A stretch of 64,000 bases of DNA. Origin: an uncultured Ectothiorhodospiraceae bacterium. GTDB lineage: Bacteria; Pseudomonadota; Gammaproteobacteria; JAABTG01. Both the position numbers and the translations under genes were made by a program. The notes beneath the pieces are model-generated. The model did not search any database. It saw only the letters and a list, made by a program, of their open reading frames with translations, and had not been told where the DNA came from. Shown here in pieces: positions 2,016 through 63,768 of the stretch; positions within the stretch are counted from its first letter, which is position 1; each line of letters begins with the position of its first letter. The DNA is taken from contig CAYTPQ010000003.1 in assembly GCA_964439835.1 (NCBI GenBank), positions 55,468-119,467 on the forward strand. Direction: 5' to 3'.

Positions 2016-3131
2016 CTAACCGGCCCCGCGCGACTCGCGGTCCCACAGCACCTTCACGATCCGCTCCGCCGCGTGCCCGTCCCACAGCTCCGGGCGCCGG
2101 CCGACCTTACCCTGACCGTCGATGACCCGGTTCGCCTCGGCCAGGATCCGCTCGGGGTCCTGGCCGGCGAGCACGTTGGTGCCCTCGGTCACCGTGATCG
2201 GGCGCTCGGTGTTCTCGCGCGCCGTGACACAGGGGACACCCAGGGCGGTGGTCTCCTCCTGGATGCCGCCCGAGTCGGTCAGCACCAGACGAGCATTGTC
2301 CATACACTTTAAAAAGTCCAGGTAACCCAGCGGATCTACGAGCTTGAGGTCCCGGAAATCCCGCAGCCCCCGCTCCAGCCGGAACTCCCCTAGCTTGGCC
2401 CGGGTACGTGGGTGGATGGGAAAGACCACGGGCAGGCGCACCGACAGCGCCCCCAGGACCTCCAGCAGCCCAGCCAGGGTGTCGCGGTCGTCGACGTTCG
2501 AAGGCCGGTGCAGGGTGACCAGTGCGTAGCCGCGGGGGCTCAGACCCAGGTCTTCGAGCACCGGGCTGCGGCTCGCCTTCTCCCGGTGCCTGAGCAGCGA
2601 GTCGATCATCACGTTGCCGACGAAGAAGACCCGCTCCTCTGGGATCCCCTCCCGGCGCAGGTTCTCCAGCGCCGTGCGCTCGGTGGTGAAGAGGTAATCC
2701 GAGATCTGGTCGGTCAGGACCCGGTTGACCTCCTCTGGCATGCCGCGGTCGTAGGAGCGCAGGCCCGCCTCCACGTGGACGAGCTTGACGCCCATCTTCA
2801 CCGCGACCAGCCCGCAGGCGATGGTCGAGTTGACGTCACCGACCACCAGGACCAGGTCGGGCTTCAGCTGCTTCATCTCGCGCTCGAAGGCGATCATGAC
2901 CTTGCCGGTCTGCTCGCCGTGGCCACCGGAGCCGACGCCGAGGTACACGTCCGGCTTCGGCAGGCCCAGGTGGTCGAAGAAGAGCTGTGACATCTTGTGG
3001 TCGTAGTGCTGACCGGTGTGCACCACCAGCGGCTCGATCCCCGGCTGGGCCCGCATCGCCTCCCAGAGGGGGGCAACCTTCATGAAGTTCGGGCGGGCGC
3101 CGACGACGTTGACGATCTTGAGCGCGGGCAT
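2016..3131 (-). CDS. wecB: UDP-N-acetylglucosamine 2-epimerase (non-hydrolysing)
   Basis: MPALKIVNVVGARPNFMKVAPL...HTGQHYD...DSGGIQEE is full-length WecB/MnaA-like. The start was chosen at the internal Met that matches the family N-terminus. Confidence 0.9.
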   Translation of the reverse strand: MPALKIVNVVGARPNFMKVAPLWEAMRAQPGIEPLVVHTGQHYDHKMSQLFFDHLGLPKPDVYLGVGSGGHGEQTGKVMIAFEREMKQLKPDLVLVVGDVNSTIACGLVAVKMGVKLVHVEAGLRSYDRGMPEEVNRVLTDQISDYLFTTERTALENLRREGIPEERVFFVGNVMIDSLLRHREKASRSPVLEDLGLSPRGYALVTLHRPSNVDDRDTLAGLLEVLGALSVRLPVVFPIHPRTRAKLGEFRLERGLRDFRDLKLVDPLGYLDFLKCMDNARLVLTDSGGIQEETTALGVPCVTARENTERPITVTEGTNVLAGQDPERILAEANRVIDGQGKVGRRPELWDGHAAERIVKVLWDRESRGAG

Positions 3132-10739: not shown

Positions 10740-12680
10740 ATGTCCAGGTACTCGGCGGAGCCCGCACAAGACGCTTCACCCGGTTCCCGCCCCCCGCCGG
10801 CCCGTCCCGTCGACTCGAACTGGCTCTGCGGGGTCTTCGACCCGACCGCGGCCGTGCCCCCGAGCGAACGCCTCGGGCCGATGGCAGCGACTGCACCGGC
10901 CTCGGCCCGTCCCGCCACCGCCGCCACCGCCAACGGCTGCACCGTCGCGGCCCACTGGGCGGCCACGGCCGAGGGCCTGCTGGTCGGCGTGGCGGGACAC
11001 CCGTACTGGGACGGGGCGCCCACGGACCTCCCGCAGGACCCCGCCGCGGCGCTGGCAGTTCTCTATCGCCGCATGGGCGAGCGCTGCCTGGCCCCGCTGC
11101 GCGGCGCCTTCACGGTGGCCGTCTACGACCCCGCGGCCGGGACCGGCCTGCTCGCCATCGACCGCATCGGCCAGCACCACCTGTACTACGCGCAGGTCGG
11201 CGAGGCCCTCGCCTTCGGCTCCTCCGCCGACGCGGTGCTGGCCTTCCCGGGCGTGCCGCGCGAGCTCTCCCACGACGCCCTGTTCCAGTACCTGTACTTC
11301 CACATGATCCCGAGCCCGGGGACGGTCTACCGCGCGGTCTCCAAGCTCGAAGGCGCCCACTGCCTCCTCTTCCGCCCCGGCCGCGTCGAGGTCCGTCCCT
11401 ACTGGCGCCCGACCTTCGTCGAGACCTGGGGCGGCCGCGATCAAAGGGGTCTGACCCCATCGGTCCGCGATCAATGGGGTCAGACCCCTTTGATCCGGGC
11501 AGCGGGGGAAGAGCTGCGGGCGCTGCTCCAGGCGGACGTCGCCCGCTACTGCGACCTCCCCGGGGTCGGCGCCTTCTTGAGCGGGGGGCTCGACAGCTCG
11601 ACCGTCGCCGGTCTCCTCGCGCGGGTCCGGCCCGGGGAGGCCCACACCTACTCGGTCGGGTTTGCCGAGGAGCAGTACAACGAGCTGCCTTACGCGCACC
11701 TCAGCGCCGACTGGTTCAAGACCACCCAGCACGACGTCATCGTCTGCCCCGACGACGCCCTCACCGCCGTTGCCACGGTCGCAGCGGCCTTTGACGAGCC
11801 CTTCGGCAACTCCTCGGCGCTCGCCGCCTACTTCTGTGCCAAAGCCGCGCGGGCGGACGGCGTCACCCGGCTCATCGCCGGCGACGGCGGCGATGAGCTC
11901 TTCGCCGGCAACGAGCGCTACGGCAAGCAGCTGGTGTTCGAGGCCTATTTCCGGCTGCCGGTGGCGCTGCGCCGGGGCCTCCTGGAGCCACTGCTGCTCG
12001 GCATCCCCGCCCTCGATCGGGTCCCGTTGGTGAAAAAAGGCGTGAGCTACGTGCGCCAGGCGCTCGTGCGGCTGCCCGACCGCTTCGACACCTACAGCTA
12101 CCTGCACCGGCACCCCCTCACCGAGATCTTCCAGCCGGACTTCCTCGCCAGCGTCGACACCGGGGCCCCGTCGCGCGCGATGCAGGCGCTCTGGGACGCG
12201 GTGCCCGGCGCCAGCACCGTCAACCGGATGCTGTTCCTCGACTGGAAGAAGACCCTGCAGGACAACGACCTGGTCAAGGTCAACCGCATGGCCGAGGCCG
12301 CGGGGGTCGAGGTCGTCTACCCGATGCTGGACGACGCGGTGGTGGAGCTCTCCTGCCGGGTACCGAGCCGGCTGAAGCTGAAACCGGGGCAGCTGCGCTA
12401 CTTCTACAAAGAGGCGATGCGCGGGTTCCTGCCGCCCGAGACCCTGAGCAAGAAGAAGCACGGCTTCGGCCTGCCGTTCGCCATCTGGATCACGAGCCAC
12501 CGGCCGCTGCAGGAGCTCGCCTACGACAGCGTGCTGGCCCTGCGCGACCGCCCCTACCTCCGGCCCGAGTTCTTGGAGAGGGCGATCCGCCTTCATCAGC
12601 ACGATACGGCGGTCTACTACGGCGAGCTGGTCTGGATCCTGATGATGTTGGAGCAGTGGCTGCGCTCTCGCGGTCTCTGA
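10740..12680 (+). CDS. Asparagine synthetase-like glutamine amidotransferase. It resembles exosortase-A-associated amidotransferase 1
   Basis: Class-II GATase region (LCGVFD...), AsnB PP-loop SGGLDSS and a C-terminal AsnB domain. It contains an in-frame family A repeat (11437-11496). An N-terminal extension lies before the catalytic Cys. Confidence 0.8.
   Translation: MSRYSAEPAQDASPGSRPPPARPVDSNWLCGVFDPTAAVPPSERLGPMAATAPASARPATAATANGCTVAAHWAATAEGLLVGVAGHPYWDGAPTDLPQDPAAALAVLYRRMGERCLAPLRGAFTVAVYDPAAGTGLLAIDRIGQHHLYYAQVGEALAFGSSADAVLAFPGVPRELSHDALFQYLYFHMIPSPGTVYRAVSKLEGAHCLLFRPGRVEVRPYWRPTFVETWGGRDQRGLTPSVRDQWGQTPLIRAAGEELRALLQADVARYCDLPGVGAFLSGGLDSSTVAGLLARVRPGEAHTYSVGFAEEQYNELPYAHLSADWFKTTQHDVIVCPDDALTAVATVAAAFDEPFGNSSALAAYFCAKAARADGVTRLIAGDGGDELFAGNERYGKQLVFEAYFRLPVALRRGLLEPLLLGIPALDRVPLVKKGVSYVRQALVRLPDRFDTYSYLHRHPLTEIFQPDFLASVDTGAPSRAMQALWDAVPGASTVNRMLFLDWKKTLQDNDLVKVNRMAEAAGVEVVYPMLDDAVVELSCRVPSRLKLKPGQLRYFYKEAMRGFLPPETLSKKKHGFGLPFAIWITSHRPLQELAYDSVLALRDRPYLRPEFLERAIRLHQHDTAVYYGELVWILMMLEQWLRSRGL
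11437..11496. repeat. Family A palindromic element, copy 1, inserted in frame inside the AsnB-like CDS
   Basis: gatcaaaggggtctgaccccat-cggtccgc-gatcaatggggtcagacccctttgatc. The half-sites are reverse complements of each other. It is translated as ...DQRGLTPSVRDQWGQTPLIR... Confidence 0.75.
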
Positions 12681-12847
12681 GCCTGCTCTCTGGGGAGACC
12701 CTGCAGAGGTCGTCACCCCGGCGGAAGCCGAGGTCCAGCGTGCTGATTCCTATGGATTCCGGCCTATGCCGGAATGACGAAGGGGAAGGCGTTAAGGGCT
12801 TCCAATACGGGACATCGGTCCCCGGCGCCCCTGGCCCGAGACGCGCG

Positions 12848-15864: not shown

Positions 15865-15880
15865 ACCGCCGTGACGTCGA

Positions 15881-15955
15881 TCACCGCAGAGGCGCAGAGG
15901 CGCAGAGGTATATCCGTGAGCTTTTCTCTGCGCCTCTGCGCCTCTGCGGTGAAAC
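15881..15955. repeat. Family B hairpin element, copy 1. 26-nt near-perfect inverted repeat CACCGCAGAGGCGCAGAGGCGCAGAG with a 20-nt AT-rich loop
   Basis: tcaccgcagaggcgcagaggcgcagagg-tatatccgtgagcttttct-ctgcgcctctgcgcctctgcggtg. It lies between the TDT gene and the RND membrane-fusion gene. Confidence 0.75.
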
Positions 15956-17050: not shown

Positions 17051-17127
17051 CCACCGCAGAGGCGCAGAGATATATCTCCATGTTTTCACCGATCAATCCT
17101 CTGCGTCTCTGCGCCTCTGCGGTGAGC
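17051..17127. repeat. Family B hairpin element, copy 2
   Basis: ccaccgcagaggcgcagaga-tatatctccatgttttcaccgatcaatcct-ctgcgtctctgcgcctctgcggtg, lying between the membrane-fusion gene and the RND pump gene. Confidence 0.75.
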
Positions 17128-17150
17128 AACCCCGGCGGACGGGCGAGCTC

Positions 17151-20100: not shown

Positions 20101-20573
20101 CCACCCTGACGACGGTGGTCGGCATGCTGCCCCTGGCGCTGGGCGTCGGCCAGGGCTCGGAGATGCTGCGTCCCCTCGCCCTCACCATCGTCTGGGGCCT
20201 GGCCTTCTCGACCCTGGTCACCCTCATCCTGATCCCTGCGGTCTACCGCCTGGCCCACCCGATCAATGGGGTCAGACACCTTTGGTCGGGGGTTGAGGTC
20301 GCCCGACCAAAGGTGTCTGACCCCATTGATCGCTCGTACCCGTCGCTGCAGTCGTCCGAGCTGGCGGCCAGAGCGGACGTGGAGCCCTCCCCCCCGGCGG
20401 CGGGCGGCCAAACACCGTGGGACTCACTGCCGGCAGAGCAGCAGACGCGCCTGCGGGTCGAGTACGGCCGCTACCTGGACTCGCTACCGCCCACCTGCTC
20501 GCTCGAGGAGAAGAACGCCCGCTTTGCCCGCTGGCTGGCGGAGCGCGGCGTGGTCTACGTCCCGCCGCAATAG
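17151..20573 (+). CDS. RND efflux pump inner-membrane component (HAE1/AcrB family), with an in-frame family A repeat and an ~80-aa C-terminal extension
   Basis: 12-TM AcrB-like architecture (IRHPIGVVMLSLAVVVLG...). TM12 ends at about aa 1035. The repeat at 20261-20331 follows, and the frame stays open for a further 80 aa. Confidence 0.85.
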   Translation: MTRPSGKAEPPHTAGGLAGWSIRHPIGVVMLSLAVVVLGVFAASRLGIDLLPHIVYPEIGVRVTDPGVPAVIMEDQVTRPLEEALAATEDAIALQSQSTEGRSSVDLSFAYGTDVDQALRDASSRLDRAKRLLPTTVEPATIFKRDPSQIPVVELVIASPLRDPVALRTWVDDVFARWFINLPGVAATEVGGGLVREIHILPDQQRLAGLGLTVEDLARAVAAANRDTPGGRLRAEGTDLVGRTSGRFAGVAELADLPLDLPGLPGEAPVLRLGEVAEVIDTHEDERLRVRVNGTAGIKLSVQKQPQANTVEVVDGVLARLAWLRDQGLVPADVTVVTVDEQARYVRQALANARDAVVSGAVLAMLVVYLFLGSVTRTLVIGSVIPIAVMVTFVLMDAGGLTLNIMSLGGLALGVGLLVDNTIVMLENVVRHQSAGEPAGEAPLAAAREVQGALVASTSTNLAAVLPFLFVGGLVGLLFRELIFTISAATLASLVVALTLVPALTARSAPSAPGRLRRGVDRAVDALGSGYARLVALTLRVPWLPPLVLGAVLAATLPTFLTGKQVFFPDMDEGRISVSVVADPGIPLDEMDSRVGRLEALLLAQPEVVNVYAQVGGNVFGRSQFESPNRATLSVYLVPADRRTVSTDGWIQRMQREVAALKLAGTTVRMTSQGIRGIRYSRGDESLSVRVRGPDLEVLARLGEEAVERIRDLPGLRNVQHSLEEVRQELSVRVDRERAAALGLTVEEVGRAVQIALEGRVISDFLDGDRRFDVRLRLPPLEFSSAAALEGLLLYPPAGERAPVYLGDVARVELAPAPVTIRRDQQQRIVEVSASPTGERTLGEVSAEVWARLADMPLPEGYSLYDGGTLKALQESQGQGRAMLGLAIFLVLVVMAVQYESLRNPLVVLVSVPFAAIGVALAIRALDLPLSMPVWLGLIMLAGIVVNNAIVLVEYVEQARARGAARDEAIVEAARLRLRPILMTTLTTVVGMLPLALGVGQGSEMLRPLALTIVWGLAFSTLVTLILIPAVYRLAHPINGVRHLWSGVEVARPKVSDPIDRSYPSLQSSELAARADVEPSPPAAGGQTPWDSLPAEQQTRLRVEYGRYLDSLPPTCSLEEKNARFARWLAERGVVYVPPQ
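20261..20331. repeat. Family A palindromic element, copy 2, in frame in the C-terminal tail of the RND pump ORF
   Basis: gatcaatggggtcagacacctttggtcggg-ggttgaggtc-gcccgaccaaaggtgtctgaccccattgatc, translated as ...INGVRHLWSGVEVARPKVSDPID... Confidence 0.75.
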
Positions 20574-30341: not shown

Positions 30342-30344
30342 AGC

Positions 30345-30433
30345 ATCAAAGGGGTCAGACTCGATTGATCCACCGGCGACCCGACCGATGCCTGCGACCC
30401 GGCCGGGATCAATCGAGTCTGACCCCTTTGATC
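30345..30433. repeat. Family A palindromic element, copy 3, intergenic between the oxidoreductase A and B subunit genes
   Basis: atcaaaggggtcagactcgattgatcc-...-ggatcaatcgagtctgacccctttgatc. Confidence 0.7.
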
Positions 30434-32167: not shown

Positions 32168-32183
32168 CGGACGGGGGGCAGGC

Positions 32184-32282
32184 CCCCGGTACGGTCCCGC
32201 GGGACACGCCGCAAGTACGTCCCTGTAGGCTCGTCTGCCGCCATCCATGGCGTCAGACGGTCCCGCGAAACCGTACCGGGGA
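32184..32282. repeat. Family D ~100-bp nested-hairpin element, copy 1 (subtype 1)
   Basis: cccggtacggtcccgcgggacacgccgcaagtacgtccctgtaggctcgtctgccgccatccatggcgtcagacggtcccgcgaaaccgtaccgggg. It has terminal and internal inverted repeats and lies between convergent genes. Confidence 0.75.
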
Positions 32283-32357
32283 CCTGCGTCCAACTGGTCG
32301 GTTGCCTCGGCAAAGCGCGCCCAAAGTACCGCTGGGATTTCCCGGGAGACCGGGAAG

Positions 32358-39859: not shown

Positions 39860-39869
39860 GGAAAGAGAA

Positions 39870-39936
39870 CCGCAGAGGCGCAAAGGCGCAGAGAGGATTG
39901 GTGGGATCGATGCTTCTCGGCGTCTGCGTGTCTCGG
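39870..39936. repeat. Family B hairpin element, degenerate copy 3, between the two nrdD pieces
   Basis: ccgcagaggcgcaaaggcgcagagagg...ctcggcgtctgcgtgtctcgg. The left arm matches copies 1 and 2, and the right arm is decayed. Confidence 0.5.
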
Positions 39937-39974
39937 TAGCAACCGAGTGAGAACAAGAGGAGAGGAAACTGACG

Positions 39975-40142
39975 ATGAGTGAGGGGAGAATCGAGCTGAG
40001 CGAGACCGAGCGCACCCGCTGCGAGGTGTGGACGCGGGTGATGGGCTACCACCGGCCGGTCTCCGCCTTCAATCCCGGCAAGCAGTCCGAGCACCGCGAG
40101 CGCACGCCCTTCCAGGAGCGGCGCTGTGCGGCGCTGCGGTGA
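39975..40142 (+). CDS. 55-aa ORF carrying the NrdD glycyl-radical motif, apparently the detached C-terminal module of nrdD
   Basis: It is not in the ORF track (<60 aa). Own translation: MSEGRIELSETERTRCEVWTRVMGYHRPVSAFNPGKQSEHRERTPFQERRCAALR. It matches the NrdD C-terminal glycyl-radical region (RVxGY...NxGKQxE..R). Strong SD aagaggagagg 8 nt before the ATG. Confidence 0.6.
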   Translation: MSEGRIELSETERTRCEVWTRVMGYHRPVSAFNPGKQSEHRERTPFQERRCAALR

Positions 40143-40204
40143 GGGCACCGCATCCGCAAATTCATTAGGGCCGGCTGAGAATCCCTGCACCGGGCTTCAA
40201 GCAG

Positions 40205-40305
40205 GTTTCCGGTGCGGTTTTGCGGGACCGTATGCCGCCTGGATGGCGGCATACGAGCCTACAGGGACGTATTCACGGCGCGTCCCGCGGGACCGCACCG
40301 GGAAT
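40205..40305. repeat. Family D nested-hairpin element, copy 2 (subtype 2, reverse orientation)
   Basis: Its reverse complement aligns with copy 4 (cccggtgcggtcccgcgggac.cgccgtgaatacgtccctgtaggctcg.atgccgcc...). It lies between convergent genes. Confidence 0.7.
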
Positions 40306-40346
40306 CTGCTGGCACGGTGGCGAGACCGTAGTCTTTCGCCTGCTCA

Positions 40347-54042: not shown

Positions 54043-54149
54043 CCGTCGAATAAACGACCCCGTCGTCATTCCGGCAAAGGCCGGAATCCAGACGAAACCG
54101 ACGTCTGGACGCCGACCGTCTGCCGGGCGGCAAGCCGCCCCGAAGCGTC

Positions 54150-61790: not shown

Positions 61791-61843
61791 TCGGTTGCGC
61801 GGCGGCTACAAGACATCGCAAGCCGCGAGGTAGGCGGGCAGGT

Positions 61844-61942
61844 CCCCGGTACGGTCCCGCGGGACACGCCGCAAGTACATCCCTGTAGGCTCGTCTGCCG
61901 CCGTCCCTGGCGTCAGACGGTCCCGCAAGACCGTACCGGGGA
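61844..61942. repeat. Family D nested-hairpin element, copy 3 (subtype 1)
   Basis: Near-identical to copy 1 (ccccggtacggtcccgcgggacacgccgcaagtacatccctgtaggctcgtctgccgccgtccctggcgtcagacggtcccgcaagaccgtaccgggga). Confidence 0.75.
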
Positions 61943-62135
61943 CCTGCTCGAAGGTTGGCGCGAGAATCCTAGGAGCATGTCGGACTTCGCCGCGCCGCGA
62001 GATCCCAGGCGCACAGCTCGAGTTTCTCAATCGCCATCAGCCCCAGACTTCGCGTAGACGGGCCCAAGTTGCTCACGATCTTCGCTTACCGGGAGTGCCG
62101 AAAGCGAGGATGCGAAGAACCGCTCGTCCGGACTC

Positions 62136-63005
62136 TCAGGTCTCTCGACGGGAGACGGCGAGGAGCAGTGCGTCCAGGGCCCGGGTCGGCAGCAGGCGGC
62201 GCGCGACGGCGAAGAAGCGGGTGGGGACGGTCACGGGGTAGCGGGCCTTCGGGCGGCGGCTCTCGAGGGCGTGCACCACCGCGGGGAGGACCGCCTCGGG
62301 GCCGAGGGTGAAGGGGGCGACGGGACCGGGGGTGGTCAGCCGACGCTCCATGGCGAGGTAGGTCTCCCGGTGGGGGCTCGCGTCGCGGCGGACGTTGCGG
62401 CGGTAGGCCTCGAAGGCGTGCTCGCGGAAGCGGCTGCGGATCGGGCCGGGCTCCACCAGGGAGACGTGGATGCCGGTGCCCGCGAGCTCCAGGCGCAGGG
62501 TGTCGGTCAGGCCCTCCAGGGCGAACTTGCTGGCGTTGTAGGCACCGCGGTAGCGCAGGGTCACCAGGCCGAGCAGGGAGCTGTTCTGGATGATGCGACC
62601 CTCGCCGCGGGCGCGCATGGCCGGCAGCACCCGCGTGATCAGCTCGTGGACGCCGAACAGGTTGGTCTCGAACTGCGCCCGCAGGGCGTCCCGGGAGAGG
62701 TCCTCCAGGGCCCCGGCCTGGCCGAAGCCGGCGTTGTTGAATAGCCCGTACAGGCGCCCGCCGGTGCGATCCAGCAGCTGTTCGACGGCCGCGTTGATCG
62801 AGCCCGAGTCGTCCACGTCCAGGCGCAGGGCATCCAGCCCCTCGCCGGCGAGCTCGGCGACGCTCTCCTCCCGGCGTGCGCTGGCGAACACCCGGTAGCC
62901 GCGCGCGAGCAGCCCCCGCGCAACCGCCCGCCCGATCCCGCTGGAGCAGCCGGTGATCAGGACCGGCCGGCCCTGACCCCGCCCTAGGGCCTTTTCGGTG
63001 CTCAT
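62136..63005 (-). CDS. Short-chain dehydrogenase/reductase (SDR family)
   Basis: TGCSSGIGRAVA cofactor motif, NNAG, and catalytic YNASKFAL. Confidence 0.85.
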   Translation of the reverse strand: MSTEKALGRGQGRPVLITGCSSGIGRAVARGLLARGYRVFASARREESVAELAGEGLDALRLDVDDSGSINAAVEQLLDRTGGRLYGLFNNAGFGQAGALEDLSRDALRAQFETNLFGVHELITRVLPAMRARGEGRIIQNSSLLGLVTLRYRGAYNASKFALEGLTDTLRLELAGTGIHVSLVEPGPIRSRFREHAFEAYRRNVRRDASPHRETYLAMERRLTTPGPVAPFTLGPEAVLPAVVHALESRRPKARYPVTVPTRFFAVARRLLPTRALDALLLAVSRRET

Positions 63006-63046
63006 CGGATCAACGCCTGTGAAGAAATTGACCCGCGCGGCAGGCT

Positions 63047-63142
63047 CCCGGTGCGGTCCCGCGGGACACGCCGTGAATACGTCCCTGTAGGCTCGGATGC
63101 CGCCGTCCGGGCGGCATACGTTCCCGCGAAACCGCCCCGGGA
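63047..63142. repeat. Family D nested-hairpin element, copy 4 (subtype 2)
   Basis: cccggtgcggtcccgcgggacacgccgtgaatacgtccctgtaggctcggatgccgccgtccgggcggcatacgttcccgcgaaaccgccccggga. Confidence 0.7.
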
Positions 63143-63180
63143 TCCTGCTCGACGGTGTTCCCGAACACTTCTTCGTGGGC

Positions 63181-63768
63181 TCAGGGGTTCAGAAGGCGGG
63201 TGTGCCAGCCCCCGTGGCCTTTCTCGTACACGACCCGCTGGTGCAAGCGGTGCTCGCCTGCGGTCCAGAACTCGATCCGGTCCGGGACCACCCGGTAGCC
63301 CGACCAGTGCACCGGCCGGGGCACGTCACGGCCGGCGAAGCGGGCCTCGAAGCGGGCGTAGCGCTCCATCAGTTCGTGGCGGGAGGCGAGGGGCTCGGAC
63401 TGCCAGGAGGCCCAGCCGCCGATCTGGCTCTCCCGGGGCCGGCTCGCCCAGTAGGCGTCCGCCTCCTCCGGCGCCACCGCCTGGACGTCCCCCTCGACGT
63501 TGACCTGTTCCTTGAGCGGCTGCCAGAAGAAGCAGAGCGCCACGCGCGGGCGCGCCGCGAGCTGTCCGCCCTTGCGGCTCAGGGTATTGGTGTAGAAGAC
63601 GAAGCCCCGCTCGTCGATCCCCTTCAGCAGGATGGTGCGAATCGACGGCTTGCCCGCGGCGTCTACGGTAGCCACGGTCATCGCGGTGGGGTCCGGCAGG
63701 TCGGTCTGCATCGCCCGCCCGAGCAGGTTCTGGAAACGGTGGATGGCTTCGACGTAGAGGTCGGTCAT
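63181..63768 (-). CDS. pdxH: Pyridoxamine 5'-phosphate oxidase
   Basis: PNPOx motifs (TVDAAGKPSIRTILLKGIDERGFVFYTNTLSRKG, and RIEFWTAGEHRLHQRVVY near the C-terminus). Confidence 0.9.
   Translation of the reverse strand: MTDLYVEAIHRFQNLLGRAMQTDLPDPTAMTVATVDAAGKPSIRTILLKGIDERGFVFYTNTLSRKGGQLAARPRVALCFFWQPLKEQVNVEGDVQAVAPEEADAYWASRPRESQIGGWASWQSEPLASRHELMERYARFEARFAGRDVPRPVHWSGYRVVPDRIEFWTAGEHRLHQRVVYEKGHGGWHTRLLNP

Follow-up and report, generated by a model that had tools for sequence, protein, structure and literature searches.

A probable GC-rich branch of the YPAL repeats in Gammaproteobacteria with a conserved three-way junction and two predicted CsrA/RsmA-type hairpins

The intergenic repeat analyzed in this study (Family D) was found to share a single-stranded fold with the Yersinia MITE YPAL, and it is very probably a short (~115 bp), GC-rich branch of the YPAL superfamily. 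The fold consists of a long helix that ends in a three-way junction, whose two arms carry GGA loops of the type bound by CsrA/RsmA. We tentatively propose a mobile repeat of the YPAL type whose RNA would act by binding CsrA/RsmA, the binding itself being predicted. Compared to the literature found, the new points are the wide distribution of the family, the assignment of the folding strand and the junction with its two CsrA/RsmA-type hairpins.

Copies of the repeat in the window

Four copies of an intergenic repeat of ~100 bp had been predicted for the window, i.e. the complete 64-kb stretch of DNA that was analyzed. All four are present at the predicted positions (87% mean column identity in an alignment of ~115 columns), and each of them lies between genes. 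A search of the 64-kb window with the covariance model of the family resulted in exactly four matches at E<0.01, with scores of 94 to 104 bits and E-values of 1e-18 to 1e-20. The consensus sequence, the outer arms and the inner palindromes were correct as originally written. The length had been underestimated and amounts to ~115 bp (113–118 bp per window copy), since an outer GCAGG...CCTGC pair, a few bases outside the predicted coordinates, is part of the hairpin. An identity of ~95% had been given for the members of each of two subtypes, which holds for subtype 1 (copies 1 and 3; 94%) but not for subtype 2 (copies 2 and 4; 89%).

In the following, F denotes the strand of the original consensus and R its reverse complement. 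Copy 1 (subtype 1) extends from 32173 to 32290 with R on the minus strand (104.5 bits; R −87.7 versus F −77.9 kcal/mol), and copy 2 (subtype 2) from 40197 to 40312 with R on the plus strand (103.9 bits; R −82.7 versus F −67.7 kcal/mol). Copy 3 (subtype 1; 61833 to 61950; 100.4 bits) and copy 4 (subtype 2; 63036 to 63150; 94.1 bits) both have R on the minus strand, so that copy 2 is inverted relative to the three others. All four copies are solitary. Their GC content ranges between 0.66 and 0.73, and strong folding was observed for both strands, with −68 to −90 kcal/mol on either strand and z-scores of −5.4 to −10.3; none of 200 shuffled sequences folded equally well.

Pfam annotation of the flanking ORFs confirmed convergent neighbors for three of the four copies. 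Copy 1 is located between the genes for a DmsC-like protein (+) and a GGDEF-hemerythrin protein (−), 6 nt past the stop codon of the former and 68 nt past that of the latter. Copy 2 lies between the genes for NrdD (+) and a BT1 transporter (−), and copy 3 between those for a Lon-N-domain protein (+) and an SDR (−). The genes around copy 4, pdxH (−) and an SDR gene (−), are arranged in tandem, with 31 nt separating the copy from the pdxH stop codon on one side and 31 nt separating it from the start codon of the SDR gene on the other. At copy 2, a 338-bp stretch without an obvious gene (39860–40196) separates the NrdD stop codon from the repeat, and nrdD is not followed by nrdG.

Conserved fold of the R strand

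In a first scan, the pattern GCGGGAC-N12-16-TCCCTGTAGGCTCG was searched in species-representative genomes, resulting in at least 80 loci. All matches listed belong to the Gammaproteobacteria, among them the genera Xanthomonas, Stenotrophomonas, Marinobacter, Haliea, Cellvibrio, Microbulbifer, Ectothiorhodospira, Thioalkalivibrio, Nitrococcus and Sedimenticola as well as MAGs. The covariance model R1, built from the window copies and related copies, identified ~150 full-length copies in the 80 loci; 68 of these lie outside the scan pattern and therefore give an unbiased view of conservation. When metagenomes were scanned with a lineage-specific pattern derived for the window, 3 loci only were obtained. 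The window PdxH itself was found in Logan metagenome assemblies only, and its nearest named homologues stem from Gammaproteobacteria or Thiotrichales MAGs. Logan short-read contigs with the pdxH and dmsC genes of the window stop at the element, as they should at a repeat. No match was obtained when PLSDB and phage sequences were searched by BLAST with the window element as query. Rfam at gathering thresholds reported tRNAs alone for the window and 14 loci, and a full-text literature search with strings of the core sequence returned nothing relevant.

On the R strand, a P1/P2 helix of ~27 bp carries the three-way junction on top, with the two arms P3 and P4. The P2 helix is GCGGGAC/GUCCCGC in most lineages and GUAAAG/CUUUAC in enterobacterial copies. 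P3 is a hairpin of 10–13 bp with a C-G closing pair and the loop A-N-G-G-A-U, which reads CAUGGAUG in 106 of 149 copies and CAGGGAUG, CAAGGAUG or one of a few other sequences in the rest. P4 starts with a GCC/GGC helix (GCU/AGC in 13 copies), followed by a stem of three pairs, UAC/GUA, which closes a hexaloop and covaries to UCC/GGA, CCC/GGG and CAC/GUG. Across the 149 copies, the P4 loop columns were determined to be C (149), A (149), N (G 103, A 19, U 15, C 12), G (149), G (148), A (149), N (C 100, U 29, G 10, A 10) and G (149). The loop of each arm is an A-N-G-G-A-N hexaloop with C-G closure, and CANGGANG occurs twice, ~27 nt apart.

In copy 1, the conserved core with the P2 helix (GCGGGAC/GUCCCGC) around the junction comprises positions 32199 to 32266 on the minus strand. 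Its arm P3, the inner hairpin with the R-strand loop CAUGGAUG, is located at 32232–32259 (−; GGA is the complement of 32244–32246), and its arm P4, the hairpin UAC-AGGGAC-GUA on R, at 32216–32227 (−; GGA is the complement of 32220–32222). The core of copy 2 (40222–40288, +) includes a P3 arm with the pentaloop UGGAU (GGA at 40241–40243, +) and the P4 hairpin at 40260–40271 (+; GGA at 40265–40267). For copy 3, the core was found at 61859–61926 (−), with the P3 loop CAGGGACG on R and the P4 hairpin at 61876–61887 (−). The core of copy 4 is at 63061–63127 (−), with the P3 pentaloop CGGAC on R, which is the complement of 63105–63109, and the P4 hairpin at 63078–63089 (−).

The outer ~20 bp and the stem of the inner hairpin have no sequence in common between lineages, but their pairing is retained. 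In a set of 40 sequences, compensatory double changes were found in 31 of 39 predicted pairs. When the structure specified by us was applied to 149 distinct copies, 93.9% of the cells were paired, and double changes were present in 40 of 43 pairs. The covariation score for these 149 copies was 0.684, compared to 0.153 for shuffles and 0.08–0.12 for slid partners. The conserved feature of the family is the single-strand fold and not the sequence of the arms.

The departures from Watson-Crick pairing differ between the strands. Read on the F strand, mismatches comprise 60 C-A/A-C against 9 G.U pairs, whereas the outer helix of the R strand contains 262 G.U against 15 A.C cells. At the level of cluster majorities (55 clusters), 57 G.U stand against 8 A.C on the R strand (p 3e-10), in an alignment (A4) that was fitted to the R-strand model and favors G.U slightly. 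Due to this one-sided pattern of wobbles and mismatches, R is regarded as the strand under structural selection. The original prediction was oriented along F, the weaker-folding strand, and had overlooked the three-way junction and both GGA hexaloops.

Following P4, a 3′ bulge of the form YUYR was observed, in which bases 1 and 4 covary perfectly (C..G in 91–92 copies, U..A in 57). They form a lone pair at columns 90 and 93 of A4 (C90-G93/U90-A93) with two bases in between and a mutual information of 0.96 bits, and the state of this pair correlates weakly with lineage markers. In copy 1, the bulge is the complement of 32212–32215 and reads CUUG on R. The lone pair could resemble that of a CUUG tetraloop. 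A pairing of CAGG with CUUG within P4, as seen in minimum-energy folds, was rejected, since it fails in copies of the UUCA type and shows no covariation.

Relation to YPAL/RU-2 and Ysr224

YPAL/RU-2 (Yersinia palindromic sequence) was reportedly described by De Gregorio et al. in 2006 (J Bacteriol 188:7876) and by Delihas in 2007. The REP/MITE-like character that had been assigned to the repeat, i.e. multi-copy, intergenic and forming a nested hairpin, was right in kind, and the element is homologous to this YPAL/RU-2 MITE. Model R1 scores the YPAL of Y. pseudotuberculosis with 62.5 bits (E 5e-13), and the matched sequence is an exact substring of the 168-nt RU-2 sequence of Y. pestis (Delihas, PMC2759123, Table 1b). 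In addition, a BLAST search with RU-2 resulted in direct matches to all four window copies (E 6e-6 to 8e-5), in which RU-2 positions ~34–147 alone have a counterpart.

YPAL/RU-2 is MITE-like and present in 43–144 copies per Yersinia genome (PMC2847712). It has internal inverted repeats, lacks a terminal TA and is described as recently mobile, with target duplications of 3–26 bp that adjoin dyad symmetries; some sites that are occupied in one of the two species Y. pseudotuberculosis and Y. pestis are empty in the other (PMC2229807). Furthermore, its co-transcription with genes upstream has been reported, together with a possible influence on the stability of the upstream RNA (PMC2229807). The window copies share with YPAL a homologous central region of ~110 nt, which comprises the long stem as well as the three-way junction with its two CANGGANG loops; in YPAL itself, these loops read CAAGGAUG and UACAUGGAUGUA. 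Like YPAL, the window copies are multi-copy, located between genes and not AT-rich, and internal inverted repeats as well as filled and empty sites are found for both. In contrast, YPAL has a length of 167–168 bp and was described in Yersinia and Erwinia only, whereas the window copies are ~115 bp long with 66–73% GC. The P1/P2 helices of the two have no sequence in common (GUAAAG/CUUUAC in YPAL compared to GCGGGAC/GUCCCGC in the window). Irrespective of any link to CsrA, YPAL is not confined to Yersinia and Erwinia.

The relationship was traced from a weak match of the window copies to Ysr224 in Rfam at E-value thresholds (best score 19.3 bits versus a gathering threshold of 70; opposite strand), via a low-GC copy on wastewater plasmids of E. 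coli, Klebsiella and Citrobacter, to Yersinia. This YPAL-like copy is identical in all of these plasmid sequences (L092, 4022–4134; H21–H35) and located downstream of an alcohol dehydrogenase gene. The segment is bordered by IS26 on one side and by remnants of IS5-like and Tn3-like transposase genes on the other, and the plasmids with this segment, from E. coli, Klebsiella, Citrobacter and Shigella, were mostly sampled in wastewater or sewage.

In a locus of Y. pseudotuberculosis (L098), Ysr224 (RF02770) was detected at 2959–3065 on the plus strand with 133.9 bits, overlapping an R1 match at 2979–3092 on the minus strand. On the basis of this overlap, Ysr224 can be identified as the YPAL/RU-2 MITE modeled on the opposite strand. 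Its Rfam model is shifted by ~20 nt, does not include the 3′ arm and comes without a structure-function model. The strand chosen is apparently the weaker-folding one (−59.4 versus −68.1 kcal/mol for the other strand of the 168-nt YPAL/RU-2 unit), and GC-rich members are missed. Ysr224 has been reported to be multi-copy in Y. ruckeri (PMC12112432) and among the most frequent Rfam matches across bacterial genomes (PMC9029176); its nature as a MITE probably explains this high rank among the sRNA matches of genome surveys. The RNA was described as a 53-nt transcript that is encoded between mutT and secA in the sense orientation of the two genes (Nuss et al., 2015). This only family transcript on record corresponds to the F strand as modeled in Rfam.

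CsrA/RsmA-type loops, mobility and alternative explanations

The SELEX consensus of CsrA is RUACARGGAUGU, with ACA and GGA invariant and GU nearly so; most of the selected ligands have a six-nucleotide loop in which the flanking AC pairs with GU (PMC7652899). ANGGAN hexaloops, closed by a G-C/C-G pair, are likewise found in the hairpins of RsmZ and hcnA that are bound by RsmN and RsmE (PMC3791407). In the family, P4 reads (C)UACANGGANGUA and P3 reads CANGGAUG, and both match the consensus of CsrA/RsmA sites. The freely varying positions of the family coincide exactly with the N positions of the CsrA consensus. With at least two copies taken as the threshold, GGA loops of the CsrA type were found in the window: copies 1 and 3 have two hexaloops each (P3 CAUGGAUG or CAGGGACG, P4 UACAGGGA(C/U)GUA), and copies 2 and 4 have the P4 hexaloop together with a P3 pentaloop N-GGA-N without the leading A. 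The two GGA motifs, ~27 nt apart on different arms of one junction, would suit both RNA-binding faces of a CsrA dimer.

According to the proposed mechanism, transcripts of the R strand would arise from read-through of an adjacent gene or from the doublets of alternating orientation that occur in the Xanthomonadaceae. The resulting RNA would bind one CsrA/RsmA dimer across its two loops, and the element would constitute a portable CsrA-binding module, either titrating or recruiting, joined to a very stable 3′ stem-loop. More speculatively still, YPAL-type repeats may have spread pairs of predicted optimal CsrA/RsmA hairpins over intergenic sites that number tens to hundreds in each genome and so form a distributed, transcription-dependent sponge or recruitment network in many Gammaproteobacteria including the Xanthomonadaceae. 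If the loops do bind CsrA/RsmA, a repeat catalogued to date as a Yersinia MITE (YPAL) and as an uncharacterized sRNA (Ysr224) only would be a widespread post-transcriptional module. It would also exemplify the spread of binding sites of an RNA-binding protein by a mobile element. The availability of a global regulator would then be coupled to read-through transcription in many places, and a concrete candidate for CsrA titration would be at hand in Xanthomonas and Stenotrophomonas. To our knowledge, no canonical sponge RNA of the Csr/Rsm type has been found in the Xanthomonadaceae, where RsmU alone is known. RsmU of Xanthomonas was rejected as the identity of the element, since the published RsmU primers do not match it.

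With the known sponges (CsrB/CsrC, RsmX/Y/Z), the family shares GGA motifs that are presented by hexaloops on short hairpins and agree with the SELEX and NMR consensus, and two sites whose spacing suits one CsrA dimer. Unlike these sponges, Family D has two sites per unit in many dispersed units rather than in one gene, and the sites are placed atop a ~27-bp helix. Neither a GacA/UvrY promoter nor a Rho-independent terminator, as expected of a sponge sRNA gene, belongs to the element: no GacA-box-like site was found within 300 nt upstream of any copy, and no promoter of its own is recognizable. No sequence relation to any Csr/Rsm family of Rfam was found. The window and the loci revealed no csrA gene, and the literature search revealed no paper that links YPAL or Ysr224 to CsrA.

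The proposed association with gene 3′-ends was supported by the gene context of 64 clusters with both neighbors called, based on crude GC3-based gene calls: 36 are convergent, 27 tandem and 1 divergent. The family keeps out of promoter regions. The R strands of solitary copies show no orientation bias relative to the neighboring genes (convergent 12, sense 5, antisense 7, divergent 1), and in Marinobacter the conserved copy between pgk and fba places the F strand in the operon mRNA. This lack of bias weakens a simple role in the 3′-UTR and the simplest RNA model. Given this result, one of three options applies: many copies act via antisense or read-through transcripts, some of the copies alone matter, or the R fold is selected during propagation and not site by site.

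In the most probable alternative, which we consider rather unlikely, the repeat would be a purely selfish MITE-like element without host function, whose junction and loops are recognized by a mobilizing enzyme on a single-stranded intermediate of R DNA (or RNA), so that the likeness to CsrA sites would be coincidental. The lack of orientation bias fits this explanation, and the strand asymmetry of G.U(T) pairs would also be expected from a folded single-strand intermediate. The same applies to the recent mobility of YPAL with its target duplications of 3–26 bp (PMC2229807) and to the filled and empty sites that differ between related genomes. Two relatives, 68–76% identical in PdxH, have the gene order pdxH-yjbQ-SDR without the element (L093 and L096), and a third (L095) has it between an epimerase gene and pdxH instead; the window has copies 3 and 4. 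No empty site close enough in sequence for a comparison of target sites was found among these relatives (68–76% PdxH identity). In the relatives, pdxH and the SDR gene are separated by the gene yjbQ (PF01894) (L093, 3088–3535; L096, 2196–2615). It is absent from the window, where copy 4 occupies the 175-bp gap (63005–63181).

The arrangement of copies outside the window also resembles that of mobile repeats of the BIME/REPIN architecture. In the Xanthomonadaceae and several MAGs, doublets occur with their R strands pointing apart. The orientations of neighboring copies are −+ in 51 cases, +− in 9, ++ in 1 and −− in 1, with a median spacing of 221 bp, and alternating arrays were observed (five copies in L029). 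In Xanthomonas sp. LMG 31884 (L068, 3623–5032), a 408-bp unit with two opposed copies is repeated 3.5 times in tandem. Truncated copies, which also fit a selfish element, are present in L101, L023 and L076. In L101 (5484–5660), the partial copy comes after a complete one, and its first bases are exactly CCTACAGGG, with which the P4 hairpin starts; this is possibly a breakpoint hotspot.

Several observations do not fit a purely selfish element. No transposase gene adjoins the copies in 730 kb, and the termini differ between lineages so that the center alone is conserved. The motif C-A-N-G-G-A-N-G, kept in two separate loops with N free, would be a very specific coincidence. Furthermore, copies at orthologous sites are 98–99% identical in genome pairs of Stenotrophomonas, Marinobacter and MAGs, compared to 87–96% for the flanks (5 mismatches in 457 nt of the copies, 587 in 8812 nt of the flanks). 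Dead insertions should not exceed the neighboring genes in conservation, unless they often undergo gene conversion; the excess is due either to constraint in place or to homogenization or gene conversion among copies. The recent spread that had been suggested from the similarity of the window copies agrees with the differences between filled and empty sites, but it accounts for the family in part only, as the core is conserved across gammaproteobacterial orders and orthologous copies are more conserved than the flanking genes. In either case, the covariation is unusually clean for a repeat and makes the family a test case for structural selection versus recognition by a transposase.

An improbable alternative is a generic 3′-end element, i.e. 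a terminator or an exonuclease barrier that stabilizes mRNA through its GC-rich stem alone, on either strand. It would account for the clustering at gene 3′-ends described above (36, 27 and 1) and for the very stable folds on both strands (−68 to −90 kcal/mol). The co-transcription of YPAL and its possible effect on upstream RNA stability (PMC2229807) are also consistent with it, as are Xanthomonas copies placed inside a longer hairpin with A-rich and U-rich flanking runs. The terminator function for which the convergent position had been taken as a sign is not supported in its canonical intrinsic form, since a U-tract follows the hairpin in only 1–2 of 150 copies and is lacking on either strand in the remaining 148–149. 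In addition, a barrier needs neither an invariant junction nor GGA loops nor the C90-G93/U90-A93 covariation, and it does not account for the strand asymmetry of the wobble pairs.

A RAYT-dependent REP/REPIN, in which the inner CT-GTAG-GC with its palindrome would serve a RAYT encoded elsewhere in the genome, is highly improbable, since GTAG covaries as one side of a stem (changes to GGAG, GGGG and GTGG are matched in the pairing partner) and the window and the 80 loci revealed no RAYT, RAYT genes being single-copy. The cognate REP-associated tyrosine transposase that the original prediction had proposed was searched in these 730 kb by tblastn with an approximate E. coli YafM query; the single match (L056) lies inside a membrane protein and is spurious. 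Like the element, REPs are extragenic palindromes located at the 3′-ends of genes, occur as inverted doublets or in alternating arrays, and have a GTAG-like motif beside a hairpin. The inner part of the F strand reads TGTAGGCTCG followed by the hairpin, similar to REP heads such as TGTAGGCCGGATAAG...CGCCATCCGGC of Salmonella (Nunvar 2010, Table 1; PMC2817692). However, the folding strand lacks a 5′ GTAG, and with 115 bp compared to 20–40 bp the element is three to five times longer than REPs, the GT(A/G)G head of which is invariant. Conservation of its core extends across orders, in contrast to REPs, which are typically confined to one species or genus.

The tentative reading as a YPAL-type repeat with CsrA/RsmA-binding RNA concerns Family D only, and the window contains further repeats. 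A second family consists of paired palindromes on GATCAAAGGGGTCTGACCCC at 11431–11503, 20260–20332 and 30343–30433; the arms of the palindrome at 20260–20332 have a length of 31 nt, are 100% complementary and are separated by a spacer of 11 nt. A similar palindrome, GGGGTCGGATCCGTTTTCC, was observed in Stenotrophomonas spacers. An inverted repeat at 1628–1703 contains CACGAAGGACACGAAGAACACCAAG, and another one, formed by 15876–15908 and 17098–17130, has arms of the CTCTGCGCCTCTGCGGTGA type 1.2 kb apart. The inverted repeat of 12733–12785 with 54058–54110 contains CATTCCGGCAAAGGCCGGAATCC.
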